A DNA stretch of 64,000 nt from an uncultured Planctomycetales bacterium. GTDB taxonomy: Bacteria; Omnitrophota; Gorgyraeia; Zapsychrales; JAHFFX01. Position 1 is the first letter of the stretch, and the number at the start of each line of letters is the position of its first letter. The position numbers were made by a program, and so were the translations under genes. The notes beneath the pieces were generated by a model. That model was not told where the DNA came from. It saw nothing but the letters and a program-made list of their open reading frames with translations, and did not search any database. Below are positions 3 to 40,304 of this stretch, piece by piece. The DNA lies in contig CAYJRN010000001.1 of the NCBI GenBank assembly GCA_964372915.1, positions 100,305 to 164,304 of the forward strand, read 5' to 3'.

Positions 3-407
3 CTGACGATTATTTTGACGAGCCTCATCGGCATTGAGCGGGAAATTCGGCAAAAAGACGCGGGGCTGCGCACGCATGTCCTTGTGGGAGTGGGGTCCTG
101 CCTCATCGTATTGACTTCATTTTACATTTCTGATATATATACAGCCAGTCTCACAGATCCAACCCGCATTATCTCCAACATCGTGACCGGTATCGGTTTT
201 TTGTGCGCCGGCGCCATCATCCGCGGTGGCAGGCAAGTTGTGGGATTGACAACGGCTGCCACCCTTTGGATCGTTTCGGGGATCGGGATGTCGGTGGGAG
301 CGGGAGATTACAACGCGGCGATCGTCGTCACTATCTCGGTCATGCTTGTCCTCATTGGTTTACGCGCGGCCGAACGAATATTGGCTAAAAAATTTCATAA
401 CCAATAA
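3..407 (+). CDS. mgtC: MgtC/SapB family membrane protein, 5'-partial (frame open to window edge; first in-window start-like codon is TTG at 15)
   Basis: The reading frame has no stop back to position 3. The motif SLIGIEREIRQKDAGLRTHVLVGVGSCL matches the MgtC N-terminal membrane domain (ExERE...AGLRT). Hydrophobic segments follow. Confidence 0.72.
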   Translation: MTIILTSLIGIEREIRQKDAGLRTHVLVGVGSCLIVLTSFYISDIYTASLTDPTRIISNIVTGIGFLCAGAIIRGGRQVVGLTTAATLWIVSGIGMSVGAGDYNAAIVVTISVMLVLIGLRAAERILAKKFHNQ

Positions 408-528
408 GTCCCACGCTGCTTCCCACAGGGGACGGCTTCGCGCGCCTACTCGTCGCAGCTTTGGGATAAATTCGCACTTACACCCACTCGTTCAACGACG
501 GGGTGTGTGCTCATTTAGGGAGGTGCTT

Positions 529-1044
529 ATGGCGCTCAGAGACCGCAGAGATGCAAAAGAAAAAGATCTCAAAAGCATCGAGATCAGTGCCCAGATGCAG
601 GGAACGCTTTCCTTCAAAGACCCGGTGAATCTCAAAATCAACGGCAACTTTACCGGAACCCTTGACACCAAGGGCACGCTCACCATCGGCCATTCCGCCA
701 ATGTCGAGGCTCACATCACCGGCGAAAATATCATCATCGAAGGAAAAGTGAAAGGAGACATCGTTGCTAAAAGAATGCTGGTTCTTCTGCCTACCGCCGT
801 TTTGACCGGGAACATTTCTACCCCGAAACTCAATATCGTCGAAGGCGCCACTTTTCAGGGCCGATGCCAGATGATGGAAGATTTTCTTGATCTCGATGAA
901 TTAAGCAAATACCTCGAGATCGACCAGCCAACCATCGTGGAGCTCGTGAATTCCGGTAAAATTCCAGCCACTAAAAACGGTGACAGCTGGGTTTTTGAAC
1001 GTAATCGGATCGACAACTGGGCCGCCGCGGGGAGAATCAAATGA
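529..1044 (+). CDS. Bactofilin-domain protein fused to a C-terminal HTH_17 (excisionase/MerR-like) DNA-binding domain
   Basis: ATG at 529 sits behind GGGAGG, so the ORF-track 346 start is probably an N-extension overlapping mgtC. Repetitive beta-rich segments (NGNFTGTL, TKGTLTIG, ITGENIIIEGKVKGDIV) are typical of the bactofilin DUF583 fold. The C-terminus LSKYLEIDQPTIVELVNSGKIPATKNGDSWVFERNRIDNW matches the excisionase-family HTH pattern. Confidence 0.55.
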   Translation: MALRDRRDAKEKDLKSIEISAQMQGTLSFKDPVNLKINGNFTGTLDTKGTLTIGHSANVEAHITGENIIIEGKVKGDIVAKRMLVLLPTAVLTGNISTPKLNIVEGATFQGRCQMMEDFLDLDELSKYLEIDQPTIVELVNSGKIPATKNGDSWVFERNRIDNWAAAGRIK

Positions 1045-3090: not shown

Positions 3091-4077
3091 ATGGATCTCT
3101 TTAAAAAAGTTCAACAAGCGATCGTTGACAACCATTTACTGAAAGCCGGAGACCATGTCCTTATCGGTGTCTCTGGCGGACCGGATTCCATGGCCCTTAT
3201 GCATATCCTCAAGGGTCTTCGCTACGAACTGGGAATCCAGATTTCCGTGGCCCATCTCAATCATAATTTGCGCAAAAATTCGGCGCGCGATGAAAATTTC
3301 GTCCGAACTCGCGCCTCAAGACTGAATCTTAAGTTCAGTTCTGGCTCTATCCGCATCAAAAAATCTCCAGGAAGATCTTCTTTAGAGGAAGCTGCCCGAC
3401 AGGCACGCTTCGATTTTCTCATCCACACCGCAAAAAAGCTCAAGGCGAACACGGTGGCCCTGGCGCACACGCGAGATGAGCTTGCCGAAACAGTTCTCAT
3501 GCGAATTCTGCGAGGCAGCGGCCTTGAGGGACTGCGGAGCATCTTGCCGAAGCGAGAGATTAGAGGGATGACATTTATCCGTCCATTCCTCTCGATTGAA
3601 AAAAAAGAACTCCTGGCCTTTCTTAAAAAAAATAGGATTCCGTTCCTCCTCGATTCCACCAACAAGAACACCGATTTTTTTCGCAACAAAATTCGACTCA
3701 AGCTTTTACCGCTTTTAGAGAAAGACTATCAGCCCAATATTAGAGAAGTCCTGTCGAATCTCGCGGATGTCAGTGCGCTCGATTATGATTTCATTGCTGA
3801 AACTGGGAAGGGGCTCTTGAAAAAAACCTTAAAGGCGTCCTCAAATCCTAAAATCACCTACCTCAATACGGAAATTCTGAAACGACAGCATCCGGCACTC
3901 GAGCGGTTTTTGATTCGAGAAACCCTCGCCATTCTTAAAAAAAGTCCATACAACTTCTCTCTTCATCATACCCAACAGGTGCAGAACCTTAGCAATAAAA
4001 AGGCAGGAAGTCAGCTGCTTTTGCCCAATGGCATCCTCCTCACCAAAAAAACCGGCTGTCTTAAATTTGTCGCTTAA
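3091..4077 (+). CDS. tilS: tRNA(Ile)-lysidine synthetase
   Basis: The PP-loop motif SGGPDS is at the N-terminus. The ~330-aa length and position immediately upstream of ftsH match the conserved tilS-ftsH neighbourhood. Confidence 0.85.
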   Translation: MDLFKKVQQAIVDNHLLKAGDHVLIGVSGGPDSMALMHILKGLRYELGIQISVAHLNHNLRKNSARDENFVRTRASRLNLKFSSGSIRIKKSPGRSSLEEAARQARFDFLIHTAKKLKANTVALAHTRDELAETVLMRILRGSGLEGLRSILPKREIRGMTFIRPFLSIEKKELLAFLKKNRIPFLLDSTNKNTDFFRNKIRLKLLPLLEKDYQPNIREVLSNLADVSALDYDFIAETGKGLLKKTLKASSNPKITYLNTEILKRQHPALERFLIRETLAILKKSPYNFSLHHTQQVQNLSNKKAGSQLLLPNGILLTKKTGCLKFVA

Positions 4078-7292: not shown

Positions 7293-8063
7293 ATGCCCGT
7301 TGCCCTTTGGTTCACGATCATCAAACCCGTCATCGAGATTTTTGTTCTGTGGGTGGTTTTTTATCAAATCCTGATTTTCTTTGAAGGCACCCGCGCGTTC
7401 CAGGTCTTGAAAGGAATCACATATGTTTTGATTGCCTTTCTTGTATCTCAGATCCTGGGGTTCGACATCTTAAACTGGCTGTTGACCAAATTCTTCGGCA
7501 TTTCGATCATCGCCGTTCTCATCATCTTCCAGCAGGAATTGCGCCATGGGCTGGCAAGGCTGGGGCAACAACATCTTTTTAACATTACCTTGGAAGAGGC
7601 CGAGATTGTTGCCATCATCGAAGAAATTACCGAAGCGGCGTATCGTCTCTCCAAACGGAAAAATGGATGCATCATCGCGATCGAGCGTGATACCAAACTT
7701 AAGACCTACATCGAGAGCGGTGTCATGATCGATGGCAAGGTGAGCACTGAACTTTTAACAAGTATTTTTAATCCGTTGTCGCCGTTGCACGATGGGGGGG
7801 TTATTACCCGCGGCGAAAGGATTGTCGCGGCCGCGTGTCTTTTCCCGCTTTCGGAGAACCCGAATTTCAACAAGATCATCGGGACAAGGCACCGGGCCGC
7901 CATCGGCTTGACAGAGCAGACAGACGCGGTCGTCGTCTTGGTGTCGGAAGAGACTGGAGAAATTTCGGTTGCCACCGACGGCCGATTCATCCCCATCGTC
8001 AACAAAGAACGCCTCATCAACATTTTGAAGAATCTTTTGGTCGCGCCAAAGAAAAAGAAATGA
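7293..8063 (+). CDS. cdaA: Diadenylate cyclase CdaA (DAC domain, 3 N-terminal TM helices)
   Basis: The DAC core reads IIAIERDTKL...LHDGGVITRGERIVAAACLFPLSE...GTRHRAAIGLTEQTDAVVVLVSEETGEIS. Confidence 0.9.
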   Translation: MPVALWFTIIKPVIEIFVLWVVFYQILIFFEGTRAFQVLKGITYVLIAFLVSQILGFDILNWLLTKFFGISIIAVLIIFQQELRHGLARLGQQHLFNITLEEAEIVAIIEEITEAAYRLSKRKNGCIIAIERDTKLKTYIESGVMIDGKVSTELLTSIFNPLSPLHDGGVITRGERIVAAACLFPLSENPNFNKIIGTRHRAAIGLTEQTDAVVVLVSEETGEISVATDGRFIPIVNKERLINILKNLLVAPKKKK

Positions 8064-11011: not shown

Positions 11012-11250
11012 CTATTCGGTGTCCCCCCGCCGTTTGCTTGTTTGCACTTTTTGAACAAATAGGGACAAGCAAACAAGCGGCGGGGGGATCAAAAGGGAAT
11101 CCTGTCCGCCCCAAAATTGGGGCGGGTTCAATCAGGAACGGTCCCGCCGCTGTAACTGAATTCTTTTCCTGTTTAAAGCCATTACTCTTTTAAGAGTGAG
11201 AAGGCAAGGGAAGAGAGTTTCATTCAGAAGTCAGAAGACCTGCCGAGTAG
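11012..11250 (+). ncRNA. Cobalamin (AdoCbl) riboswitch upstream of metE
   Basis: AAAAGGGAATCCTG..., CGGTCCCGCCGCTGTAACTG (B12-box-like GCCGCTG), GAGAAGGCAAGGGAAG and the 3' AGTCAGAAGACCTGCC motif match the Cbl riboswitch consensus from memory. An intrinsic terminator follows. Confidence 0.7.
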
Positions 11251-11313
11251 CTAGAGCGCATTCCTACTGCGAAGACAGTATCAATCGTGCGTATATTCTG
11301 GGATTTAAACGGG

Positions 11314-11350
11314 CCCAGTCCGCCATAATTTTGGCGGACTGGGTTTTTTT
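11314..11350 (+). terminator. Rho-independent terminator / riboswitch expression platform (CCCAGTCCGCC-loop-GGCGGACTGGG + T7)
   Basis: A perfect 11-bp stem followed by TTTTTTT, 23 nt before the metE ATG. Confidence 0.8.
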
Positions 11351-11372
11351 GTTAAAAAAGGATATTGAAATT

Positions 11373-13535
11373 ATGCAAACCTACGCTTACGGATTTCCTC
11401 GGTTAGGAGAAAACCGCGAATACAAAAAGGCTATTGAAAATTTCTGGAACGCTAAAGCTACCGAAACACAAACCAAAAATGAACTCGATCGCTTACAGGA
11501 GGAATTACTGAAGATTTATTCCCGGAGCGTGGACCAATTTCCGGTAGGGGAAATGACGGCTTATGATCCTATGCTGGATACGGCCATTATGCTGGGAATT
11601 CACCGGCCCAAGAACCTCAACGATTATTACAGTCTGTGTCGTGAGGAAAAGGCGCTGGAGATGACCAAATGGTTTAATACCAATTACCATTATTTGGTAA
11701 CTGACTTTGGGAGCATCAAGAAACCCAAATTGCGCTTAAATTGGAACAAATCGATGGAATATCAAAAACGGTTTCAAAAAGGGATTCCCTATCTTATCGG
11801 GCCGTTCACGTTTTTTAAACTCAGTAAAGGGCTTAGCCGAAACCGTTTTTTTGACTTGCTGGATACCGCTGCGGATATTTATGCCAAAATCATCGAGGAT
11901 TTGCCGGAAGTTCACGTCGACGAACCCGCTTTTGTCTTAGACCTCAACCAAGAAGAGATCAAGGCCATCCGCAAGGCTTACAAGAAAATGGACCCCACCA
12001 GCCGTAAAATCAATCTATTCACTTATTACGAGAGCGTTGACTGGATTAAAGACCTGCTTTCCTTACCGGTAAAATCCCTCGGACTTGATTTTATTCATGG
12101 CGCCGAACAATTATCAATGATCAAGAAGTACGGCTTCCCTAATGATAAAACGCTCATCGCCGGAATCGTGGACGGCCGCAGCATCTGGAAAACGAATTTA
12201 ACAAAAGTCATTACATTATTGCATGAACTTTCCCGACACACCTCATCCTTGATGATCAGCAACGCCGCCCCGCTTTACCATCTTCCCATCACACTTAAAG
12301 GTGAAAAGCTACCGACGGAACTTTTACAACGATTGAGTTTTGCGCGGGAACGCCTTGGAGAATTACAAACCATCGCCGAACTTTGGAAAAACGGCAAAAC
12401 ACCCGAAGCCTCTGTGTCTCTATCGCTGGGGGTCAACATGACCGTCCGCAAGAAAGTCGAATCACTTCAAACAAAAGACTTCATAAAAAAAGTTCCTTAT
12501 TCTAAACGGACCTCTTTACAAAATGGGTTACTGCGGCTTCCGCCGTTTCCGACGACCACCATCGGAAGTTTTCCGCAAACTTTCGAAATCCGCAAACTGC
12601 GCAGCGATTACCGCGGTGGTCAAATCAGCAAAGAGGTTTATGACGCGCACATCAAATCCAAGATCGCCGAACTCATCCGATTTCAGGAAGAATTGGGTCT
12701 CGATGTCCTGGTACACGGAGAATTCGAACGTACCGACATGGTGGAGTTCTTCGCCGAAAAACTGGAGGGGATTGCGACGACGCAGAAAGGGTGGATCATT
12801 TCCTATGGAACAAGGGCCTATCGACCGCCTATCATCTTTGGTGATGTTTCGCGTCCCCAGCCAATGACCATTGATGAGATTACTTATGCTCAGAGCCTGA
12901 CCAGTAAACCGGTGAAAGGCATGTTGACCGGCCCCGTGACCATCATTGCCTGGAGCTTTGTACGCGAAGACATTCCCGTCTCGCAAGTCGCCTATCAGAT
13001 TGGTCTGGCCCTCAAGGAAGAAATCCTGGACTATGAGAAAAAGGGGATTAAGATTGTCCAGATCGATGAGCCCGCTCTGAGAGAAAAAACTCCGATCAAA
13101 AGAAAAAAATGGAAAGAATATTTTGATTGGGCCATCAAGGCTTTCCGTTTGACGACCAACACGGACCCGACGACTCAAATCCACGCACACATGTGCTATT
13201 CGGAATTCGGCGATATCATCCGGGAAATTCGTCAGATGGATTTCGACGTTATTTCTATCGAAACTTCTCGTAGCCACGGCGATATCATCAAAGGGTTCGA
13301 AAAAATGAAATTTGACCGTCAGATCGGACTCGGGGTCTGGGATATCCACTCACCGGTTGTACCCAAAAAAAAGGAGATGGTCTCGATCGTGAGACGTGCT
13401 CTCAAAGTCATTCCCAAAGAGAATTTCTGGATCAATCCTGACTGTGGTCTTAAAACACGTAATTGGGAAGAAACCACAGCCTCGCTTAAAAACCTCGTGG
13501 CCTTAAGCCAAACCTTAAGAAAAAGGAGAAAGTAA
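11373..13535 (+). CDS. metE: Cobalamin-independent methionine synthase (5-methyltetrahydropteroyltriglutamate--homocysteine methyltransferase)
   Basis: ~720 aa with two MetE (beta/alpha)8 halves. The C-terminal IQIDEPAL...HMCYSEF zinc-site motifs are present. The ORF-track start at 11196 would run through the riboswitch and terminator. Confidence 0.9.
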   Translation: MQTYAYGFPRLGENREYKKAIENFWNAKATETQTKNELDRLQEELLKIYSRSVDQFPVGEMTAYDPMLDTAIMLGIHRPKNLNDYYSLCREEKALEMTKWFNTNYHYLVTDFGSIKKPKLRLNWNKSMEYQKRFQKGIPYLIGPFTFFKLSKGLSRNRFFDLLDTAADIYAKIIEDLPEVHVDEPAFVLDLNQEEIKAIRKAYKKMDPTSRKINLFTYYESVDWIKDLLSLPVKSLGLDFIHGAEQLSMIKKYGFPNDKTLIAGIVDGRSIWKTNLTKVITLLHELSRHTSSLMISNAAPLYHLPITLKGEKLPTELLQRLSFARERLGELQTIAELWKNGKTPEASVSLSLGVNMTVRKKVESLQTKDFIKKVPYSKRTSLQNGLLRLPPFPTTTIGSFPQTFEIRKLRSDYRGGQISKEVYDAHIKSKIAELIRFQEELGLDVLVHGEFERTDMVEFFAEKLEGIATTQKGWIISYGTRAYRPPIIFGDVSRPQPMTIDEITYAQSLTSKPVKGMLTGPVTIIAWSFVREDIPVSQVAYQIGLALKEEILDYEKKGIKIVQIDEPALREKTPIKRKKWKEYFDWAIKAFRLTTNTDPTTQIHAHMCYSEFGDIIREIRQMDFDVISIETSRSHGDIIKGFEKMKFDRQIGLGVWDIHSPVVPKKKEMVSIVRRALKVIPKENFWINPDCGLKTRNWEETTASLKNLVALSQTLRKRRK

Positions 13536-15532
13536 TGAAAAAAACATCTTGGCGTATAACACTTCTCGTTTTATTAATAATGCCTAAAATGGCATTCGCT
13601 CAAGAGGAACCGTTGACACCCATCGAATTGGAAAAAATTATTGTGACCGCCAGCCGCATGGCGCAGCATGATTATAAAGTCAGCGGCAACGTCAGCGTCA
13701 TTGATCGTTCTCAAATCGAATCCTCCACAGCCCAGAATATTCCCGACATCCTTAAAGACGCTCTGGGCGTTCACGTCGTCAACAACAGCAGCATAAAAAC
13801 GTCGGTCGTGGATATCCGCGGCTTCGGTGACACAGCCTCACGCAATGTGCTGGTCCTGGTCAATGACCGAATCCTTAATACCGTTGACATTTCCGGCCCG
13901 GATCTGCTGCAAATTCCTTTAAGTGCCGTGGAACGCATTGAAATTATCCGCGGGGCCGGCTCCGTTCTGTACGGGGACCGAGCGGTGGGAGGGGTCGTCA
14001 ACATCATCACCAAAAAAGGAAAGGGCAAATTGTCCGGCCGCCTGGGAACTCATATCGGCAGTTATGATGCCCGCGGAACCGACTTGGAAGTCTCCGGATC
14101 TCAAAAAGAATTCTCCTACTTTTTTTACTCCAAATACGACGATGCAAAGGGGTATCGGCAAAACAGCGACGTTTTAAGCAAAGACTTCAACACCCGCCTC
14201 GGATATGATTTGTCTGACAAGCTGTCTGCGGATATTGAATATTCCACCCACCGGGACGATTATGGACTCCCCGGCGGCTTAAGCGGGGCGAACCTCTCGG
14301 CGCTGGGGCCTAGGGCGTCCACGAATCTCAATGATTTTGCCAACAGCCGTGACCAGAACTTAAGATTGGGCTTCAATGTCACGCCTTGGCCGGCGGATCT
14401 TTATCTGGGACAACTGGCTTTGGATTTTTATGTTCGCGACCGCGATGTCTTTGATAGCTTCTCGGGGTTTGACACGACCCGTACCATCGATACCACCGGC
14501 ATTTCGGCGAAATACATTTTTGACCACACGGTTTTTAACAAAGAGGTGAACTTCGTTACGGGAATCGATTTTTACGATACCGAAAACCCGATCAAGGGAA
14601 GCGGCAGCAACACGGATGATTTGACCATTTCCAAAAAAGACATCGGCCTTTACGGTTTGGCCGAGGTTGAAACCCTGGAAAATCTTTTTGTCAACGCAGG
14701 AGGGAGATACTACAAGGCGGATTATGCCTTCAGCCAGCGCAACGGTGTCAACGTCGATGAGAAACAGCATCCGGATGTTTTTGTTTATACCGGAGGGTTA
14801 AAATACGAATATGCCCAGGGCTCCAACGCCCATATCAGCGTGCAGCGGACATTCCGGTTTCTGGCCACCGATGAGTGGTACAGTTCCTTTAGCGGGACGC
14901 TGGATACGAACCTCGATCAGCAAAAAGGGATTCAGTATGAGGCGGGAATTAAACACAATTTTAAAGACGCCATCTCTTTGAGCGTGACTCCCTACCTTAT
15001 TAACACCCATGACGAGATTTTCTTTGACCCGACGACTTTCACCAACAGCAATTACGATAAGACCCGGCGGGCGGGAGTGGAACTTGGGCAAGAGACGAAC
15101 TTGCTGAAATTCATCAACATTCCTCACCTTAACGAGCTGAAGCTTACGACCAACTACACTTATCAAAAACCGTATTTTAACGGCGGGCGTAGTAATAGAA
15201 AGTTGATTCCGCTGGTTCCCCGGCAACAAGTGAGCGGAGGGATCAGAACACAGTTCTTTAAAAATTATCACTTCGCCCTTACGGGCAATTACATCGGCTC
15301 TCAGTTTGCCATCAACGACGTCAACAACATCACCCCTAAGGTCGAGCCATACTTTACGCTGGATACCAAGCTCTCTTACAGAAAGGCAAATTATGAAATT
15401 TACGTAGGGATCAATAATATTAGTAATCAGAGGTATTCAACGACTGTCACCAAATCGGCCTCTTCCAATGCCAAAAGTTTTCTGCCGGCACCGGGAAGGA
15501 ATTTTGATGTGGGCGTCAATTGTAAATTCTAA
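13535..15532 (+). CDS. TonB-dependent outer-membrane receptor (candidate corrinoid transporter, BtuB-like by context)
   Basis: Signal peptide, TonB box IIVTASRM, plug then beta-barrel, C-terminal F. The start overlaps the metE stop (TAATG), so the gene lies under the Cbl riboswitch. Confidence 0.8.
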   Translation: MKKTSWRITLLVLLIMPKMAFAQEEPLTPIELEKIIVTASRMAQHDYKVSGNVSVIDRSQIESSTAQNIPDILKDALGVHVVNNSSIKTSVVDIRGFGDTASRNVLVLVNDRILNTVDISGPDLLQIPLSAVERIEIIRGAGSVLYGDRAVGGVVNIITKKGKGKLSGRLGTHIGSYDARGTDLEVSGSQKEFSYFFYSKYDDAKGYRQNSDVLSKDFNTRLGYDLSDKLSADIEYSTHRDDYGLPGGLSGANLSALGPRASTNLNDFANSRDQNLRLGFNVTPWPADLYLGQLALDFYVRDRDVFDSFSGFDTTRTIDTTGISAKYIFDHTVFNKEVNFVTGIDFYDTENPIKGSGSNTDDLTISKKDIGLYGLAEVETLENLFVNAGGRYYKADYAFSQRNGVNVDEKQHPDVFVYTGGLKYEYAQGSNAHISVQRTFRFLATDEWYSSFSGTLDTNLDQQKGIQYEAGIKHNFKDAISLSVTPYLINTHDEIFFDPTTFTNSNYDKTRRAGVELGQETNLLKFINIPHLNELKLTTNYTYQKPYFNGGRSNRKLIPLVPRQQVSGGIRTQFFKNYHFALTGNYIGSQFAINDVNNITPKVEPYFTLDTKLSYRKANYEIYVGINNISNQRYSTTVTKSASSNAKSFLPAPGRNFDVGVNCKF

Positions 15533-27457: not shown

Positions 27458-30106
27458 ATGACCGAATTATCCACGCGTTACAATCCGCAGGAAGTCGAAG
27501 ACAAATGGCGTCATTACTGGGAAGAGCATAATCTCTTTCAGGCTGTTCCAAATTCTCAGAAGAAACCTTTTACGATTGTCATTCCTCCTCCTAATGTGAC
27601 CGGCATCCTGCACATGGGACACGCCCTCAACAATACGCTGCAGGATATCCTCGTACGCTATAAACGCATGAAAGGGTTTGTTACCCTCTGGATGCCGGGC
27701 ACCGACCACGCCGGTATCGCCACGCAGAATGTCGTTGAGAAGCAACTGGCGAAAGAGGGGAAGCAACGCCAAGACTTGGGCCGCGAAGAATTCTTGAAAA
27801 AACTTTGGGAATGGAAACGCCAATACGGCGACACGATCATTCATCAGTTAAAAAAACTCGGCGCTTCCTGCGATTGGTCCCGCGCGCGCTTTACCATGGA
27901 CGATCCCTATAGCCAAGCTGTTACTCATGCTTTTGTCGAACTTTACAAGCAGGGCCTTATCTATCGCGGGCGGTACATCATCAACTGGTGCCCGCGCTGC
28001 CAAACGGCGCTTTCCGATGAAGAAGCCGAACACAAAGAGATTAAGGGGCACCTTTATCATTTGCGTTATCCTTTTAAAGATGATCCAAAAAAATTTGTGA
28101 CGGTGGCCACAACCCGTCCGGAAACCATGCTGGGCGACACGGCGGTTGCGGTTAATCCCAAAGATAAACGCTACAAAGGCCTTATTGGCAAAACGCTGAT
28201 TCTTCCCTTCTTGAAGCGGGAAATCCAAATCATTACTGATAGTTTTGTCGATCCCAAATTCGCAAGCGGAGCGGTTAAAGTCACGCCGGCCCACGATCCC
28301 AACGACTTTGCGATGGGCATCCGACACAAATTACCATTCATCAATATCCTGCATCCCGACGCGCGTCTGAACGAAAACGCCGGGGCGTTCGCGGGCAAGG
28401 ACCGTTTCGAAGGCCGTACGGCCGTCATCGAAGCCCTCAAGGAAAAAGGATTGCTGGAAAAAATCGAACCGCACACGCACGCCGTCGGACACTGTTACCG
28501 CTGCCATACGATCATCGAACCTTACCTGTCCAAACAATGGTTCGTCAAAATGAAACCTCTGGCCAAGCCGGCAATCGAAGTGGTCAAAAAAGGGAGGATC
28601 AAGTTCCATTCCAGCCGTTGGACTAAAGTCTACTTGAACTGGATGGAAAATATCCGCGACTGGTGTATTTCCCGCCAGATTTGGTGGGGCCATAGAATTC
28701 CGGTGTGGTATTGCGTGGGGGATTCGGCATGCAAATTGGAATGCCATCAGCCAATCGTTACTGAAACCAAACCCGAACGATGTCCTCATTGCGGATCTAA
28801 AAATCTCCAACAGGACGAGGATGTTTTAGACACGTGGTTCTCATCGTGGCTCTGGCCTTTCACGACACTCTATTGGCCGCAAAAAAGCAAAGACCTTGAG
28901 TATTTTTATCCGACCTCAGCGCTTTTCACGGCGCCGGAAATCATTTTCTTCTGGGTCGCGCGCATGATCATGGCAGGAATAAGATTCATGGGCGATATCC
29001 CATTCTCCGATGTCTATATCCACGGAACGGTGCGCGACAAAGAAGGCCGCAAGATGTCGAAGTCTTTGGGCAACGCCATCGATCCATTGGAAGTTATCAA
29101 AGAATTTGGGGCGGACGCGCTGCGCTTTAGCCTTATCGTCAACTCCGGCCAAGATATTTTTATCTCGAAAGAAAAATTTGAGATCGGTCGGAATTTCGCC
29201 AATAAAATCTGGAACGCCTCGCGGCTTGTTTTGATGAACGCCTCCCCCAAAGCACTTCAAAAAGACGCCTTCGAAAAACTCGACATCCAGAAGCTCGATA
29301 TCTACTCGCGCTGGATCATTTCGCAACTCCACTCGACGATTGAGAAGGTGAGTAAGTCCATTGAAAAATACCGTTTCTCCGAAGCGGAGACACTGCTTTA
29401 CGATTTCTTCTGGAAAAATTTCTGTGACTGGTATCTCGAAATGGTCAAGGATCGATTCGCAGAGATACAAACCCAAGCGGTGGCGGTGTACATTCTCAAA
29501 TCCTCGCTCAAACTCATGCACCCCTTTACGCCCTTTGTCACGGAAGAAATTTTCAACAAATTTTCATCTCAAAAAGGTTCGCTCGTTAAAGAAGAATGGC
29601 CGGCCGTTCAGAAAGAATTGATTAATAAAAAAATCAACGCGCAAATCAACCGGTTGATTGAAATCATCACCGTCATTCGAAATTTACGCTCCCAGTGGAA
29701 TATCGCCCCGCAGGAAAACATCGATGTGACGCTGGCTTGTTCGACAAAATCCGAAATCGCGTTCTTGAAAGAAATCTCCTCCAGTATTCAAAAACTCGGA
29801 AAAGTCAGGAACCTGTCGCTGACGAAAGAAATCCCGGCTCCCCCAGAAAGCGCTACCGGCCTCGTGGGAAAATTTAAAATCTTCATCCCCTTAAGCGGCA
29901 TTATTGATCTGGCCCAAGAAAAAGAAAAAATCTTGGGACAGCTCCAGGAGCAAAGGCAGGCGAGTAAAAACCTCTCTAACCGTCTCAAAAATAAAGAGTT
30001 CCTTAAAAAAGCCCCCCCGGAGGTGGTAAAAAAAGAGAGGGACCGCCTTACCACTCTCCAAACCAGAATCAAAGAACTCGAAAAAATCATCCTGGGCCTA
30101 AACTAG
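27458..30106 (+). CDS. valS: Valine--tRNA ligase
   Basis: HMGH (HIGH) and KMSKS motifs, ~880 aa, C-terminal coiled coil. Confidence 0.95.
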   Translation: MTELSTRYNPQEVEDKWRHYWEEHNLFQAVPNSQKKPFTIVIPPPNVTGILHMGHALNNTLQDILVRYKRMKGFVTLWMPGTDHAGIATQNVVEKQLAKEGKQRQDLGREEFLKKLWEWKRQYGDTIIHQLKKLGASCDWSRARFTMDDPYSQAVTHAFVELYKQGLIYRGRYIINWCPRCQTALSDEEAEHKEIKGHLYHLRYPFKDDPKKFVTVATTRPETMLGDTAVAVNPKDKRYKGLIGKTLILPFLKREIQIITDSFVDPKFASGAVKVTPAHDPNDFAMGIRHKLPFINILHPDARLNENAGAFAGKDRFEGRTAVIEALKEKGLLEKIEPHTHAVGHCYRCHTIIEPYLSKQWFVKMKPLAKPAIEVVKKGRIKFHSSRWTKVYLNWMENIRDWCISRQIWWGHRIPVWYCVGDSACKLECHQPIVTETKPERCPHCGSKNLQQDEDVLDTWFSSWLWPFTTLYWPQKSKDLEYFYPTSALFTAPEIIFFWVARMIMAGIRFMGDIPFSDVYIHGTVRDKEGRKMSKSLGNAIDPLEVIKEFGADALRFSLIVNSGQDIFISKEKFEIGRNFANKIWNASRLVLMNASPKALQKDAFEKLDIQKLDIYSRWIISQLHSTIEKVSKSIEKYRFSEAETLLYDFFWKNFCDWYLEMVKDRFAEIQTQAVAVYILKSSLKLMHPFTPFVTEEIFNKFSSQKGSLVKEEWPAVQKELINKKINAQINRLIEIITVIRNLRSQWNIAPQENIDVTLACSTKSEIAFLKEISSSIQKLGKVRNLSLTKEIPAPPESATGLVGKFKIFIPLSGIIDLAQEKEKILGQLQEQRQASKNLSNRLKNKEFLKKAPPEVVKKERDRLTTLQTRIKELEKIILGLN

Positions 30107-30211
30107 CCTTTCACTAAAATACTTCAAAATACTTCTAGCTTTTCAAATCCGCAGATGTTTTTATTTATTTCTATATGCTATACTTACAGCAGATAATAAA
30201 AGGCAAACTGC

Positions 30212-30239
30212 TTGAAAGAGCAGGACATCCCGCTATAAT
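30212..30239 (+). promoter_or_regulatory. Strong sigma70-type promoter (TTGAAA-16-TATAAT) with an AT-rich UP-like tract upstream
   Basis: cttgaaagagcaggacatcccgctataata. No protein-coding gene follows before the terminator at 30397. Confidence 0.5.
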
Positions 30240-30245
30240 AAAAAT

Positions 30246-30434
30246 GTTAGGTGGGATCGCTCCGATAGAAAAATGGAGTGGCAAAGCCACAGGTCTTCAA
30301 ACAGGATTGTGAATTAAGACAGCTGGGTTGCATTATTGAATAAGGTCTTCCATTCAACAGATTTCTACTGAATGGAAACGGAGTCTTGATAAACACAATC
30401 CTGTCCGGCAATAAAAAATGGACAGGATTTTTTT
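30246..30434 (+). ncRNA. Candidate small RNA (~190 nt) bounded by the promoter at 30212 and the terminator at 30397-30434
   Basis: Inference from a consensus-like promoter plus an intrinsic terminator with no ORF between them. Internal hairpins include ACAGGATTGTG...CACAATCCTGT. There are several GGA-containing motifs (CAGGATTG, ACGGAG). Confidence 0.35.
30397..30434 (+). terminator. Rho-independent terminator (AATCCTGTCC-loop-GGACAGGATT + T7)
   Basis: A 10-bp stem followed by TTTTTTT. Confidence 0.72.
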
Positions 30435-30526
30435 ATGAGCACTTAAGTTACGGAGCCTATGGCGACGGGACTTAATCGTGCGAATAACCCTCGAAGAGGG
30501 TTACACCATGGGAGAAAACGAGTTTA

Positions 30527-30913
30527 ATGTTTCGCGTAAAAAGAAAAATAGGATTCAGCCTCGCGGAATTGCTCATGGCAGTATTCATTCTATCGATTGG
30601 GATTGTGAGCTCGCTTTTTTTCTTTACGAGCGCGCTGATATCATCGGAATTCGCGCGGGACATGACGGAGGCCACAACCCATACGGAACATGTTCTGGAA
30701 GAAATGAAGACGCGCAGCTCTTTGTCGAACATCACGGGCACCAATTGGAGCAGTTGGGCATCGGGACAAAACGTGTTCACTCTGCCTAGTGAAACTTTAA
30801 CGGTGGCTTACGTGAACTCATCTGCCGATCCTTTAGACGTCCAGGCAACAACCTCCTGGACCAAGAAAAACAGGACGAACAACGTCTCTTTGAGAACACA
30901 GGTTCACAAATAA
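30527..30913 (+). CDS. Prepilin-type N-terminal cleavage/methylation domain protein (type IV pilin / pseudopilin-like)
   Basis: KIGFSLAELLMAVFIL is the class III signal peptide motif (G|FxLxE) followed by a hydrophobic helix. Confidence 0.7.
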   Translation: MFRVKRKIGFSLAELLMAVFILSIGIVSSLFFFTSALISSEFARDMTEATTHTEHVLEEMKTRSSLSNITGTNWSSWASGQNVFTLPSETLTVAYVNSSADPLDVQATTSWTKKNRTNNVSLRTQVHK

Positions 30914-30917
30914 GGTT

Positions 30918-31394
30918 ATGAACATCAAAAACGAAAAAGCCGTAACGCTCATTGAATTGATGGTCGCCACCTTGATTTTCAGCTTCCTGGTGGCCGGCAT
31001 CTACGCCGCGTTTCTAGCCGGGAACAGATCCTGGTCAACGCATGAGAACAACGTGGCTTTACAGCGAGATGCGCGGGGAGCCCTTTGGGTCATGGTGCCT
31101 GACTTAAGAGAGGCCAAGAGTGTTGTCATCACCCAAAGCTCAGGAAACACGGCGATCAGTTTTACAACTTTAACTTTGGGAAGCGTGTCGTACGCATGGA
31201 GCAACACGGGCGCCAGCGCCAACCAGATTATCCGAACCGTTGGTTCGAACACAAGAATCCTGGCAAGAAACATTAGCGCCATGGCCTTTACCGATCTGTC
31301 CAGCGCTATTCTCGTTGATATTACCTCCACGCGATCTGATTCGCTGGGAAAATCGGCAAACTTTAACTTAAAGGAAAAAATAGCGTATCGATAG
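30918..31394 (+). CDS. Pseudopilin-like protein with variant prepilin motif (Ala at -1)
   Basis: KAVTLIELMVATLIFSFL resembles the prepilin N-terminus, but the -1 position is Ala rather than Gly. Confidence 0.5.
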   Translation: MNIKNEKAVTLIELMVATLIFSFLVAGIYAAFLAGNRSWSTHENNVALQRDARGALWVMVPDLREAKSVVITQSSGNTAISFTTLTLGSVSYAWSNTGASANQIIRTVGSNTRILARNISAMAFTDLSSAILVDITSTRSDSLGKSANFNLKEKIAYR

Positions 31395-31416
31395 AACATA
31401 TTGAAGAAAGGAAGGA

Positions 31417-32553
31417 TTGTTGAATATGAAAAAAATTAATGATAAAGGTGTCGCGCTCATCTTTGGTTACTTTGTCATCTCGGCGCTTCTGACGCTCTCG
31501 GCTGGGTTTGCCTTATCGACAGTCAATGAATTGAACAACGCCCGCCGGTACAAGGATTCCGCAACCGCCTTTTGGACCGCCGAAGCGGGCCTCAACAAAT
31601 TCCTTGCCGATACGAATTTACTCAATACCACCAACCCGCAATCTTTTAGCGTTGGAAATTATTCGGTGACCCTGACTAAAACCGATGCCTCGAACAAACG
31701 CACGCTTGTGGCCACCAGCACCGCGGCGGGAAGCACGCGAGATTTGCAGATGGAATTTCCCGCCAACCCGCCTCCTATTTTTGATAACACTATGTCTTCC
31801 GGAGGAAATATCACCTTGAGTGGACTTCTGGGACAAATCAGCGTTTATGACAAAACCCGCCTGACCGGAAGTTTCTCAAAATCTGGCGCGGGAACATCGG
31901 CTTATTTCGAAGATAAAGTGGAAGGGGTCGCCAGCAGTTCGACGACCTTGACCTATCCAGATTCCGACAACAACGGGACCGCCGATCAATTCAACGATTT
32001 TGTTACGTTTAACCGGAATCTCCTTTCCACCTATAGTCCCAGCGAAGTCCTGTATATCCAAACAAACTCCACAACGACGATTACGCCCAGTCCCGCGCTG
32101 GCCGGAAAAAAAATCATTTATGTGGAAGGGACCTCCGCGGGAGCTGCGGACGTCAACCTCATTTTCGGCGCCACCTGGGCCGACAATCAAAATCTAACGG
32201 TTATTACAACGGGAACCCTTAATTACATTCAGCCCCTAACGGTTGCCACCAATTCGAAACTCAACACGATCGGATGGGAACGATATTATGAACCGTCCAT
32301 TCTTTTGAGCACTCACAAAGGTGTCACATACTCGCACGGTTCCGCCGATTATAAGGAACTTTTTGCTATCTCCACAACCATAGGAAGCGTTATCGGCAAG
32401 ACTGGTATAACCGCCAACGAAACAATCGCTCATAAAAAATTCTATTATGACCCGGCCCTCCAAGGCTCAGTTGTCCCTCCCGGCTTTGAAGGGCTGGTCA
32501 CCACCAGTAGCTCTGGCTATCAATCAACGCCGAGCACATGGAAGGAAATTTAA
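31417..32553 (+). CDS. PilX-N-like minor pilin / pseudopilin, Thr/Ser-rich, 378 aa
   Basis: KGVALIFGYFVISALLTLSAGFALS resembles the PilX N-terminal domain; the remainder is low complexity. Confidence 0.45.
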   Translation: MLNMKKINDKGVALIFGYFVISALLTLSAGFALSTVNELNNARRYKDSATAFWTAEAGLNKFLADTNLLNTTNPQSFSVGNYSVTLTKTDASNKRTLVATSTAAGSTRDLQMEFPANPPPIFDNTMSSGGNITLSGLLGQISVYDKTRLTGSFSKSGAGTSAYFEDKVEGVASSSTTLTYPDSDNNGTADQFNDFVTFNRNLLSTYSPSEVLYIQTNSTTTITPSPALAGKKIIYVEGTSAGAADVNLIFGATWADNQNLTVITTGTLNYIQPLTVATNSKLNTIGWERYYEPSILLSTHKGVTYSHGSADYKELFAISTTIGSVIGKTGITANETIAHKKFYYDPALQGSVVPPGFEGLVTTSSSGYQSTPSTWKEI

Positions 32554-32581
32554 ATTAAAAAAGTAACGCTGCCCCCAGAAT

Positions 32582-33124
32582 ATGTTTAAAAAAAACCCGA
32601 TTGCTTTATTATGCCTCGTCACCGTTGTGATCCTTTTTGCCACGCTTATTATCAATTCTTTGATCGAAAAGAATATGGCGCCCACTGCCGTGTCCCAATC
32701 CGCCATTCCTGTCTTGAAGGAAAAAGAACCTAAGGCCACCGGAGCCCAACAACCGGTTACGCATGAACTCATAGCTGAAAAAGATCCAGCCAAATACGGA
32801 ATCATTATCCAAGACGCGGCGGAGGTTCCCCGGACTCCAGCTCAATGGGACCGGTTTATGACGGAAGCCATCATCAAAAATAAGGTCCTGGAGCAACCCG
32901 GGGCTCAGCCGGCCGTTGAAGTGATGAAAAAGTCTCCGGAAGATTTCGAGGCTAGACAAAAAGAAATTGATGATCGGATCGCTCTATTTGAGAAAAAAAC
33001 ACAGGAAAATCCCAGCGATGCGGATGCCGAACATCATTTACAAACTCTTTACATGTTAAAAGCCTTAGGTAAAGTTCTCAAAAATAAGGTCACCGAGCCG
33101 CCTCTCAACTTACCCTCGCCTTAA
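32582..33124 (+). CDS. Membrane-anchored hypothetical protein (N-terminal TM, acidic coiled C-terminal region)
   Basis: ORF with an N-terminal hydrophobic anchor, co-directional with and close to the pilin-like genes. Confidence 0.35.
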   Translation: MFKKNPIALLCLVTVVILFATLIINSLIEKNMAPTAVSQSAIPVLKEKEPKATGAQQPVTHELIAEKDPAKYGIIIQDAAEVPRTPAQWDRFMTEAIIKNKVLEQPGAQPAVEVMKKSPEDFEARQKEIDDRIALFEKKTQENPSDADAEHHLQTLYMLKALGKVLKNKVTEPPLNLPSP

Positions 33125-34094: not shown

Positions 34095-34139
34095 GCGGTA
34101 CAAGTGTTTACGACAAGAGTCGAAGGATTGACTCATAAA

Positions 34140-34829
34140 ATGAATAATATCAAATACATATTTTTTTCCTTAATCTTCTTGGCAATGAGCATCGTCCCGC
34201 TGGGGGCCGAGAAAGCGGACCCGGCGGAAGGCGCCGGAACTGCTTCGAACACCGTGTTCGACGACAAACAGCTCCTGGATGGATACGCTCAAAGGTTTGA
34301 AAATGAACCTAAGGAAATCATCCTCGCGATGATCAAGGATGACACGCTGGCCTCGTACAAAACAGCCGCGGCCGTGAGGGTATTCAGACAAAAATACAGC
34401 GGCGAAGTTTTCCGTCGAGAAAAAAACTTGATCGAAAAATATTTACTGCGCCGGCTCAACATTACGGATTCCAGTTTTGTCCAAGTCGAAATCATGAATA
34501 CCCTTTGCGTTATGGATCGTTATAAGTACTTCAGTTCGATGGTCCCGGCCTTGCTGCAAAAGCTGGATCACTACAACAGCACGGTCAACGAGCTGGCTTA
34601 CAACGGCTTGACGGATATTTTTGAGAAAGGCAACAACCGGGCCGCGGAAGCGAAGCTTGTTTTTAATACTCTGCGAAAAGTTCTTTTCTTATCGCGCAAG
34701 CGACTCGCCAACATCAAGGAACCCACCCCCAGACTAAAACAGAAACTGGAGCTCCTGCGCTGGTCAATCAAAATTTTAGGCACTGAAGAACTTCAGCGTC
34801 TCCCTCCAGAGGTCATTAATCTCCTATAA
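34140..34829 (+). CDS. Secreted hypothetical protein (helical, function unknown)
   Basis: The signal peptide MNNIKYIFFSLIFLAMSIVPLGA begins at an internal ATG of the 34104 ORF. Confidence 0.35.
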   Translation: MNNIKYIFFSLIFLAMSIVPLGAEKADPAEGAGTASNTVFDDKQLLDGYAQRFENEPKEIILAMIKDDTLASYKTAAAVRVFRQKYSGEVFRREKNLIEKYLLRRLNITDSSFVQVEIMNTLCVMDRYKYFSSMVPALLQKLDHYNSTVNELAYNGLTDIFEKGNNRAAEAKLVFNTLRKVLFLSRKRLANIKEPTPRLKQKLELLRWSIKILGTEELQRLPPEVINLL

Positions 34830-39371: not shown

Positions 39372-40304
39372 ATGGATAATTTTTATTTATATGCATCAGT
39401 CATCGGCATTGGAGTTGGTATCGTGCTTGTCCTTATGGTCATTGAGCTAACTAAGGAAAAGAAAACAAGCCTTTCCAAACCTGCTTCAAAACCTACTCAA
39501 AATAAGGGGCGTTCTCCTTTAGATATTTTAACCAAACTGGGATTGCACCATAAACAATCACCCCAATTACCTTCCCAGTTGCGTAAAGACATGGAACCTC
39601 AAAACACCCTGAACACCATAGCGACACCGGAAGAGATCTCCCGCCCCGCATCTTCTACAAAGATGGAACCGGTCATTATCACCCAACCTGCCACAGAATC
39701 TGAGGAATATTTGGATCTCAAAAACAAATATGAGAAGCTGGAAAGTCTCTTTCAAGAAAAAAGCAACGAGCTGGAAAAAAAAGAGATAGCGTTTGTCAAT
39801 GAATCCAAAATTCGAAAAGACTTTAATAAAGTTAAGGATATCCTAGAAAAGGAGCTCAAGGACACAAAGGACAAGTGCCACAAGATCACCTTGGAGCTGG
39901 CGGCCGCTAAACCAGAGATCGAAAATCAGAAAAACCGCATCGATCAGCTCCAAGAGATGATCAACAGGAAGAATAAAGATATTGTGGAAAAAGAACACAG
40001 CATATCTGAATTGACCAAGCAACTGGCAAATATTACGGCTAAGGCTGCGGAGCCCACGGTACCACCATCAGCTCAACCTGAGCCTCCGGCGCCTTCTGAA
40101 ATGCCGCCGGCCGATCTTGCACCAGTTCAAGAATCATCGCCGCCGCTGGAACCTCAGGCTCAACCTCAAATTCAAGAACCAAAAGTCATTGCTAAACCTG
40201 CGGAGGAATCTGTGCCTGCTACGCCTGTACCGGAAACCCCAGCGGAACCAAACAAACCACAAGCTGAACAGCCACCGCCTACTGCAGATGAGAAACCAGC
40301 TTAA
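39372..40304 (+). CDS. Membrane-anchored coiled-coil protein with Pro/Ala/Glu-rich C-terminal tail
   Basis: N-terminal TM helix, heptad-rich middle (KNKYEKLESLFQEKSNELEKKE...), PEPPAPSEMPPADLAP... tail. Confidence 0.4.
   Translation: MDNFYLYASVIGIGVGIVLVLMVIELTKEKKTSLSKPASKPTQNKGRSPLDILTKLGLHHKQSPQLPSQLRKDMEPQNTLNTIATPEEISRPASSTKMEPVIITQPATESEEYLDLKNKYEKLESLFQEKSNELEKKEIAFVNESKIRKDFNKVKDILEKELKDTKDKCHKITLELAAAKPEIENQKNRIDQLQEMINRKNKDIVEKEHSISELTKQLANITAKAAEPTVPPSAQPEPPAPSEMPPADLAPVQESSPPLEPQAQPQIQEPKVIAKPAEESVPATPVPETPAEPNKPQAEQPPPTADEKPA

Follow-up and report, generated by a model that had tools for sequence, protein, structure and literature searches.

The stretch of DNA analysed here, called the window below, comprises 64,000 nucleotides from an uncultured bacterium of the phylum Omnitrophota that was deposited as a member of the Planctomycetales (GenBank assembly GCA_964372915.1, contig CAYJRN010000001.1, positions 100,305 to 164,304). 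Four co-directional genes on its + strand (window positions 30527-33124), designated g1, g2, g3 and g4, probably constitute an operon for the core minor-pilin (priming and tip) complex of a type IVa pilus, with the pilus machinery encoded elsewhere and with a leader RNA of the class I cyclic di-GMP (c-di-GMP-I, or GEMM-I) type that would act as an OFF switch. This reading is based on the gene content, the homology classes of the products, the modelled fold of g3, the conservation of the four-gene cassette, its linkage to type IVa pilus genes in relatives, and the structure and covariation of the leader RNA.

A first-pass annotation had recognized three pilin-like genes and an anchored fourth at 30527-33124, and the list of open-reading frames (ORFs) bears this out: g1 occupies 30527-30913 (128 amino acids), g2 30918-31394 (158 amino acids), g3 31426-32553 (375 amino acids) and g4 32582-33124 (180 amino acids). 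The ORF listed for g3 extends from a TTG codon over 31417-32553 (378 amino acids), and the corresponding database protein (P0001) begins at the ATG at 31426 and has 375 amino acids; this ATG is the true start. The intergenic gaps of 4, 31 and 28 nt fit an operon organization. Antisense ORFs across the cassette, such as that at 31001-31399 on the - strand, were treated as shadows of the coding frames. The upstream neighbour, valS, ends at 30106 and leaves a leader of 420 nt (30107-30526) before g1, and the downstream neighbour is the quinolinate phosphoribosyltransferase gene (nadC). Pfam searches of the other ORFs of at least 150 amino acids found no T2SSE, T2SSF, PilM/N/O, secretin or peptidase A24 in the 64-kb window, where these ORFs are housekeeping genes only. 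The earlier description of the cluster as isolated, with no secretin, ATPase, platform protein or prepilin peptidase in the window, is therefore correct at this scale.

The products of g1 and g2 are type IV pilin-like by both their class III signal peptides and their Pfam matches. The N-terminus of g1, MFRVKRKIG/FSLAELL, has Gly at position -1 and Glu at +5 with cleavage predicted between G9 and F10, and that of g2, MNIKNEKA/VTLIELMV, has Ala at -1 and Glu at +5 with cleavage predicted between A8 and V9; a regular-expression search of all six frames recognized class III motifs with Glu+5 in these two genes only. Both products pass the gathering score (21.2 bits) of the Pfam N_methyl model (PF07963), g2 with 29.1 bits and g1 marginally with 21.6 bits, and the prepilin N-termini proposed for them at the outset are thus confirmed. 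Among the NCBIfam models, g1 was related to PilV (TIGR02523; 31.2 bits, E-value = 2.6 × 10-7, residues 8-101), below the equivalog cut-off of 52.2, and its orthologues matched PilV in 14 of 21 cases (E-value < 0.01), XpsI in eight and GspI in four; the family also matches ComGE. The product of g2 scored 13.9 bits against GspJ (TIGR01711), below the cut-off of 64.85, and ten and 11 of its 19 orthologues matched GspJ and ComGF, respectively (best E-value = 2.5 × 10-8), which suggests a likeness to GspJ/PilW at the class level only. Because the equivalog cut-offs were failed, we file g1, g2 and g3 as relatives, rather than members, of the PilV, GspJ and PilX_N families: g1 as a minor pilin of the PilV/GspI class, g2 as one of the PilW/GspJ/ComGF class and g3 as a tip pilin of the PilX/GspK type. 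Profile searches of the Protein Data Bank (PDB) sequences with the families of g1, g2 and g3 matched the N-terminal pilin helix only or, weakly, ComZ. Twelve of the 19 g2 orthologues also matched TIGR02599, the model of "Verru_Chthon cassette protein C" from an uncharacterized pilin-like four-gene cassette of Verrucomicrobia, and this resemblance may reflect an evolutionary link within the Planctomycetes-Verrucomicrobia-Chlamydiae (PVC) superphylum.

In the alignments of the g1 and g2 families (21 and 19 members, respectively) Glu+5 is invariant. The -1 residue of the g2 orthologues, on the other hand, is Ala in nine and Gly in ten, and Ala is also found at this position in two of the 21 g1 orthologues. 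Because the residue interchanges repeatedly within a conserved family, a cognate peptidase that accepts both Ala and Gly can be argued for. To judge from the alignments, the Ala of g2 is a tolerated family trait and not an oddity of the window gene, so that the first-pass annotation gave too much weight to it in calling it unusual for cleavage by PilD. The PilD of Pseudomonas aeruginosa, for its part, reportedly tolerates Ala at -1 partially.

The third protein, g3, begins with a leader that ends in Gly at -1 and is followed by a hydrophobic helix (...NDKG/VALIFGYFV, with cleavage predicted at KG/VALI), and it has neither Glu+5 nor an N_methyl match; both absences are expected for subunits of the GspK/PilX type. 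The earlier comparison with PilX_N stands for the family, of which five of 29 members match the model (PF14341; best E-value = 3.6 × 10-7), but not for the window protein itself, which has no Pfam or NCBIfam match, PilX_N (cut-off 25.5 bits) included. A profile alignment (hhalign) of the g3 family with a PilX_N/DUF7305 paralogue from one of the homologous loci (L014) gave a probability of 93% over residues 2-107. In the AlphaFold2 (AF2) model of g3, which has a mean predicted local distance difference test (pLDDT) score of 87, a helix (residues 6-61) and four strands precede a beta-solenoid (about 123-340), after which comes one last strand (371-374); the solenoid thus interrupts a pilin fold between its final two strands. 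The best PDB match of this model in a Foldseek search is ComZ of Thermus thermophilus (6QVI; E-value = 1 × 10-6, probability 1.0), followed by the ice-binding solenoids of the DUF3494 family. The same two relatives were reported for ComZ itself, whose pilin domain resembles GspK and whose solenoid resembles FfIBP, and a subunit of this type has been argued to be able to sit only at the tip of the fibre (PMC6561018). All of the g3 homologues that carry a name come from Candidatus Omnitrophota.

The fourth protein, g4, is a bitopic membrane protein and conserved fourth member of the cassette, and the anchor ascribed to it earlier is found as an N-terminal hydrophobic segment. A transmembrane helix (residues 6-30) leads into a disordered linker (33-54); a P-x-x-Y-G motif is conserved, and residues 86-171 form a bundle of four helices in the AF2 model (pLDDT 79). 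The protein has no significant Pfam match and no NCBIfam match, and its model has no significant fold match in the PDB. A homologue search with the single sequence gave two proteins; when an alignment was used as the query, a family of about 480 cluster representatives was collected, in which every member bearing a name is from Omnitrophota. At more than 35 loci g4 is the gene directly after g3. In L059 (7146-7689), a close relative that has no riboswitch, its position is taken by two short genes of 63 and 87 amino acids, a split that is probably due to a frameshift or an assembly error.

A locus search with an alignment of ten g3 sequences, combined with tblastn and ORF maps, revealed the order g1-g2-g3-g4 at 17 loci from genomes, at most of 37 from metagenomes and on a further seven contigs, altogether more than 50 Omnitrophota loci; among the cassette loci the identity of g3 falls to about 34%. 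The cassette is therefore a unit of four genes, g4 included, because these recur in one order across the loci, and it is not a chance arrangement. Where the cassette adjoins pilus machinery, this machinery is of the type IVa kind. In L010 the order is a pilin gene, a pilin-like gene, g1 to g4, then PilM_2, PilN, PilO, a T2SSB-like gene and a secretin; in L014 it is PilB (T2SSE with MshEN), PilC, two pilins, the PilX_N/DUF7305 protein, g3 and g4, followed by five genes whose sizes are those of pilM-Q; and in L012 (9701-16284) a GAF-GGDEF gene stands directly after g4 and is followed by two PilB genes (T2SSE with MshEN) and PilC. The pairing of GAF-GGDEF with an MshEN-bearing PilB in L012 is, judged by domain content, a second link of c-di-GMP to the pilus system, at the protein level. 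The gene-size pattern of these pilus clusters also recurs after the cassette in L011, L028, L032, L033, L038 and L039. In a second group (L005, L006, L024 and the contig of P0032) the cassette is preceded by a gene for a large secreted protein with DUF4215 and CBM60 domains and is followed by genes for a family 2 glycosyltransferase (GT2), exosortase EpsH, EpsI/DUF3485 and a sugar transferase; L036 has a similar pattern of gene sizes downstream, and its upstream gene of 838 amino acids has no Pfam match. In the group to which the window belongs (L003, L004, L057, L059, L061 and L063) the cassette is flanked by valS and nadC. Two members of this group, L057 (13374-13763) and L061 (9382-9759), have a small gene for a PilZ-domain protein (a c-di-GMP receptor) two genes 3' of nadC, and this gene and the Rce1-like gene that follows it are absent from the window.

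Because distant lineages hold the cassette inside full type IVa clusters, the window appears to contain a detached core minor-pilin module. The linkage itself is found in the relatives (PilM/N/O and a secretin in L010, PilB and PilC in L012 and L014) and not in the window. The suggestion that the genes supply minor pilins to a type IV filament whose other genes lie elsewhere, one of two possibilities considered in the first-pass annotation, thus gains support from the class matches, from the ComZ-like fold and from the position of the cassette inside the pilus clusters of distant relatives. Minor-pilin operons normally stand apart from the machinery, as fimU-pilVWXY1E does in P. aeruginosa, and by analogy the separation seen here is ordinary. 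Type IVa pilus genes have been reported in most genomes of nearly all classes of Omnitrophota (PMC10066038).

The P. aeruginosa fimU-pilV-pilW-pilX-pilY1-pilE operon and the minor-pilin clusters of Myxococcus xanthus, as generally described, have the same V-W-X order and class III signal peptides as the cassette. Operons of this type also share with it an X subunit without Glu+5, separation from pilBCD and pilMNOPQ and a presumed role in priming or at the tip. The cassette differs from them, however, in that it has no FimU/PilE-type genes and no PilY1, and a solenoid in g3 instead; in that it always includes g4, a membrane protein that is not a pilin; and in that its products score under the equivalog cut-offs. 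A parallel to the solenoid is found in the PilV/PilW/PilX sets of cyanobacteria, which can likewise sit apart from the machinery. According to a 2026 preprint (bioRxiv 10.64898/2026.02.12.705559), a solenoid is inserted in the same way into every PilX protein of cyanobacteria and is proposed to substitute for the PilY1 plug, so that both the architecture of g3 and the idea of a solenoid in place of PilY1 are shared. The cyanobacterial sets nevertheless belong to a different phylum, and the cassette differs from them in having no FimT-family member and in having g4 and a riboswitch leader.

The leader between valS and g1 (30107-30526), in which the first-pass annotation had missed a promoter, a c-di-GMP-I riboswitch and a terminator, contains an extended -10 promoter consensus, TGCTATACT, on the + strand (30176-30184), from which transcription is predicted to start a few bases before the aptamer. 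The motif TGnTATAyT lies 2-30 nt 5' of the aptamer in seven of the eight leaders with the riboswitch, and the eighth, L058, has a near-match, TGGTATATT. A sigma-70 match at 30212-30239 was rejected as a promoter because it falls inside the aptamer, where its first hexamer overlaps the loop (GAAA) that caps P2 and its second belongs to the first of the inserted hairpins; the conserved TGnTATAyT motif is the better candidate. The aptamer spans 30187-30345 on the + strand, with helix P1 formed by 30192-30197 and 30332-30337, P2 at 30208-30223 capped by a GAAA tetraloop, and P3 at about 30283-30329; its core reads AAAGGCAAAC...GGAC...GCAAAGCCACAGGUC...GACAGCUGGGUUGC, and the tip of P3 between GCAAAGCCACAGGUC and GACAGCUGGGUUGC is variable. 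Two extra hairpins (30227-30280) are inserted between GGAC and GCAAAGCC, which turns the internal loop of P2 into a multi-helix junction. In E-value mode, members of Rfam clan CL00126 matched 30193-30336 with 30 bits (E-value = 2 × 10-5; best model RF03167) and a large insertion, and the low score of the window copy is due to this two-hairpin insertion of 54 nt. Orthologous leaders pass the RF01051 gathering score of 35 bits, that of L003 with 45.3 bits and that of L008 with 39.2 bits. Other Rfam matches in the leader (ncr1575, gltS, miRNAs and CRISPR repeats) were far under their gathering scores and were set aside as chance.

With a covariance model, R1, built from three copies, eight copies were found (the window, L003, L008, L057, L058, L060, L061 and L063), all directly 5' of g1 and altogether in three genomic contexts. 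The riboswitch travels with the cassette, because L058 and L060 have unrelated flanks. Both extra hairpins exist in all eight copies, and compensatory changes were recognized in six of six pairs of the second hairpin and in two of three of the first. Over the eight sequences, 94% of the cells are paired and 17 pairs have changed on both sides, whereas none of 500 shuffles scored as high and slid controls reached 47% at most; these figures come from an alignment fitted to the model, a procedure biased towards the structure. The P1/P2/P3 structure of c-di-GMP-I aptamers is thus supported by covariation, and the core segments GGC, GCAAAGCC and UUGC are invariant and canonical across the copies, so that c-di-GMP, and not cyclic GMP-AMP (cGAMP), is the probable ligand as far as these nucleotides indicate. 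RF01051 riboswitches such as Vc2 of Vibrio cholerae and Cd1 of Clostridioides difficile have the same core, P2 GAAA tetraloop and P1/P2/P3 layout, followed by an intrinsic terminator; the present leaders differ from them, however, in having two conserved extra hairpins in the P2 junction. At the loci with the cassette embedded in a pilus cluster, R1 found no copy.

The second-closest relative of the window, L004, keeps TGCTATACT and a terminator directly before g1 but has no GEMM core (3300-3400), so that either the aptamer has been lost or a different leader element is present there. GEMM-I copies of canonical length, without the extra hairpins, exist in L005, L006, L009 and L024, and aptamers of canonical length precede the large upstream gene in L005, L006, L023, L024 and L025. 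Within L005 3151-6067, L006 5721-8957 and L024 1628-4948, regions that take in both aptamer and gene, the aptamers score 59-63 bits and precede the gene just 5' of the cassette, which encodes a secreted protein of 920-1030 amino acids carrying DUF4215 repeats and CBM60, joined in L024 by a beta-helix. A riboswitch copy of 335 nt in L061 (4644-4978) has large further insertions in P2 and P3; the scaffold of the aptamer seems to have repeatedly accommodated or acquired additional helices.

Downstream of the aptamer, an intrinsic terminator is located at 30397-30434 on the + strand; its stem (UCCUGUCC...GGACAGGA, 30399-30427, -13.1 kcal/mol) is followed by a run of seven U (30428-30434), and a terminator with a U-run stands before g1 in all eight leaders. 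Duplex energies predict an antiterminator, in which 30393-30407 pairs with either the P3 loop (30300-30312) or the 3' strand of P3 (30317-30331): in the window the 5' arm of the terminator gave -17.7 kcal/mol with the loop and -10.2 kcal/mol with the 3' strand, and the duplex with the P3 loop in L003 reached -34.8 kcal/mol. The 5' arm is complementary to the 3' strand of P3 in seven of the eight leaders, and the pairing covaries in L058 and L008, the paired segments being GACAG/CUGUC, GAUGGC/GCCAU and GGUAG/CUACC. The terminator lies wholly 3' of the aptamer and forms in all eight leaders when P3 is enforced, so that termination can go together with an aptamer that is folded and has bound its ligand. 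When no constraint is applied, the terminator is displaced in the minimum-energy folds of L003 and L063. Taken together, these features make it rather likely that the leader is an OFF switch in which c-di-GMP causes termination.

The operon may then be pictured to work as follows. A prepilin peptidase would process g1, g2 and probably g3, and the three would assemble in the inner membrane into a trimer like that of GspI-GspJ-GspK, which would prime polymerization of the major pilin and come to lie at the tip of the pilus. The fibre would be capped at this end by the solenoid of g3, which would probably offer an adhesive or ligand-binding surface, in place of the PilY1 that the cassette lacks. 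The phylum-restricted g4, as a membrane-anchored periplasmic helical bundle, may help to assemble or dock the pilin complex. Transcription would proceed from the extended -10 promoter through the c-di-GMP-I aptamer with its two extra hairpins. With c-di-GMP bound, the P3 and P1 helices would be locked and the downstream terminator would form; without it, the P3 loop or the 3' strand of P3 would pair with the 5' arm of the terminator and permit read-through into g1-g4. High c-di-GMP would in this way shut off pilus priming.

Several observations weigh against this reading. Pilus machinery and a prepilin peptidase are absent from the 64-kb window, and g1, g2 and g3 all score under the curated cut-offs of the PilV, GspJ and PilX_N models. 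The likeness of g3 to ComZ and other solenoid-bearing tip pilins is one of architecture and not of close similarity (Foldseek TM-score only about 0.3, identity 12%), and g4 is without a recognizable fold relative. In the leader, the window aptamer falls under the Rfam gathering score (30 bits, against 35 bits for RF01051), and the assignment of c-di-GMP as the ligand depends on core nucleotides that we take to be those of the Vc2 structure. The minimum-energy fold keeps the terminator without any constraint in six of the eight leaders, and the duplex energies of the individual sequences are only modestly better than those of shuffles, that of L060 not being better. Moreover, PilB of the MshEN type, as encoded in the relatives, is activated by c-di-GMP in Vibrio, which is at odds with an OFF switch.

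Some of these points bear on the direction of the switch, which might be the reverse: the leader could be a c-di-GMP ON switch, or the extra hairpins could alter its ligand (for example, to cGAMP), and the signal would then induce the cassette. Type IV pili of C. difficile are induced by c-di-GMP through a class II ON riboswitch ahead of pilA1 (PMC6366702), and the MshEN domains in the PilB of relatives, the GGDEF gene abutting the cassette in L012, the variant family RF03167 as the best Rfam model of the window copy and the six folds that keep their terminator without ligand could all be read in the same sense. Against this, the terminator is clear of the aptamer and forms in all eight leaders whenever the aptamer is folded, the P3 region of the aptamer is the sole alternative partner found for the terminator 5' arm, with a pairing that covaries, and the invariant segments of the core are canonical. 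In C. difficile, too, all functional class I switches are OFF switches (PMC6366702), Cd1 having the same logic as that predicted here. An ON switch or a changed ligand is thus the less likely case, if one to be taken seriously. Riboswitch control of pilus genes is shared with pilA1; the target here, however, would be a minor-pilin priming operon and not the major pilin, and the predicted sign is opposite.

The OFF-switched priming module of a type IVa pilus must also be compared with a cassette that primes a competence pilus for DNA uptake, in which g3 would be the DNA receptor at the tip, as ComZ is with PilA2 in Thermus. ComZ, the top structural match of g3, has the same triangular beta-solenoid between the penultimate and last strands and the same ice-binding-like relatives, and it binds DNA and is proposed to lie at the tip (PMC6561018). 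The matches of the g2 family to ComGF and of the g1 family to ComGE point in the same direction, and cyanobacteria have a distinct PilV/PilX set for their competence pili (bioRxiv 10.64898/2026.02.12.705559). The likeness to ComZ, however, holds at the fold level only, at the identity and TM-score given above, and g3 has 375 amino acids against 534 in ComZ. Solenoid-bearing PilX proteins are found in motility and adhesion pili too (bioRxiv 10.64898/2026.02.12.705559), and no comEA, comEC or dprA, nor any other competence context, was found near the cassette in any locus examined. A competence pilus therefore seems improbable.

Still less probable is that the pseudopilus of a type II secretion system carries g1, g2 and g3 at its tip, as equivalents of GspI, GspJ and GspK that serve protein secretion and not an extended pilus. 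The sizes (about 128, 158 and 375 amino acids) and the order are comparable to those of GspI-GspJ-GspK, the families of g1 and g2 match XpsI/GspI and GspJ, respectively, and the largest subunit in both cases lacks Glu+5 and has an inserted domain; the pilin domain of ComZ is also closest to GspK (PMC6561018). One lineage group, furthermore, has the cassette after a large secreted carbohydrate-binding protein and before exosortase and exopolysaccharide (EPS) genes. The insert of g3 is, however, a beta-solenoid between the last two strands and not the alpha-domain of GspK, PilV is the commonest match of g1, and the machinery beside the cassette in relatives is of the type IVa kind and not that of the type II secretion system (PilM_2, PilN, PilO, a secretin, PilB with MshEN and PilC). 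No GspC, GspL or GspM genes were seen where machinery adjoins the cassette, and neither a GspH-like fourth pseudopilin nor GspG stands beside it in the window. A new filament system with class III signal peptides, independent of the type IV pilus machinery and akin to the less-characterized system that the first-pass annotation had put forward as its second possibility, can hardly be credited, since no sign of it was found, distant members of the same families are embedded in complete type IVa clusters and all three pilins fall within the standard V/W/X classes, even if the cassette stands alone between housekeeping genes here and in several other lineages, g4 has no known relatives outside its family and the g2 family resembles the Verru_Chthon protein of an uncharacterized PVC cassette.

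In short, the pilin trio of the preferred minor-pilin reading is ordinary: it adds one more member to the known core minor-pilin/GspIJK class, its solenoid subunit being of the type found in ComZ and cyanobacterial PilX. What is modestly new is g4, the two-hairpin insertion with which a GEMM-I aptamer escapes Rfam in the window, and the predicted riboswitch control of a priming module rather than of the major pilin. A tentative and rather doubtful extension would be that in several Omnitrophota lineages the priming module has become detached and has acquired its own promoter and an expanded riboswitch, so that c-di-GMP gates pilus initiation by termination, with g4 as a new, phylum-specific assembly factor that would replace PilY1 jointly with the solenoid of g3. 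Once identified as a tip and priming module, the four genes, most of whose copies in the phylum are listed as "hypothetical", can be named. The Omnitrophota are uncultured, mostly ultra-small and thought to be attached to or to prey on other cells, and their type IVa pili are candidate organelles of host contact (PMC10066038); the solenoid of g3, as modelled, would be the surface most likely to touch the host or substrate. A c-di-GMP riboswitch before the priming module suggests that the number of pili is set by the supply of minor pilins. As for the RNA, the internal loop of GEMM-I P2 tolerates a conserved insertion of two hairpins, which pushes real riboswitches under the Rfam threshold, and similar copies have therefore probably been missed in metagenomes.

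Several other features of the window deserve mention. A conserved ORF of 241 amino acids with no Pfam match lies directly 3' of nadC (34104-34829, +), and another of 310 amino acids (39372-40304, +), also without a Pfam match, sits between MobA-like and XdhC genes; its product has a transmembrane segment and a Pro-rich tail, and a coiled coil is predicted in it. At 346-1044 (+) a bactofilin domain is fused with a C-terminal HTH_17 DNA-binding domain, an unusual combination. A CdaA-type diadenylate cyclase with DAC and CdaA_N domains is encoded at 7293-8063 (+), and the organism therefore also makes c-di-AMP. A cobalamin riboswitch (11061-11261, +; Rfam, 74.6 bits) precedes metE (11196-13535), which encodes the cobalamin-independent methionine synthase, and a TonB-dependent receptor gene (13535-15532). 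Because the GTG start listed for metE at 11196 falls inside this aptamer, the true start is probably located further downstream.

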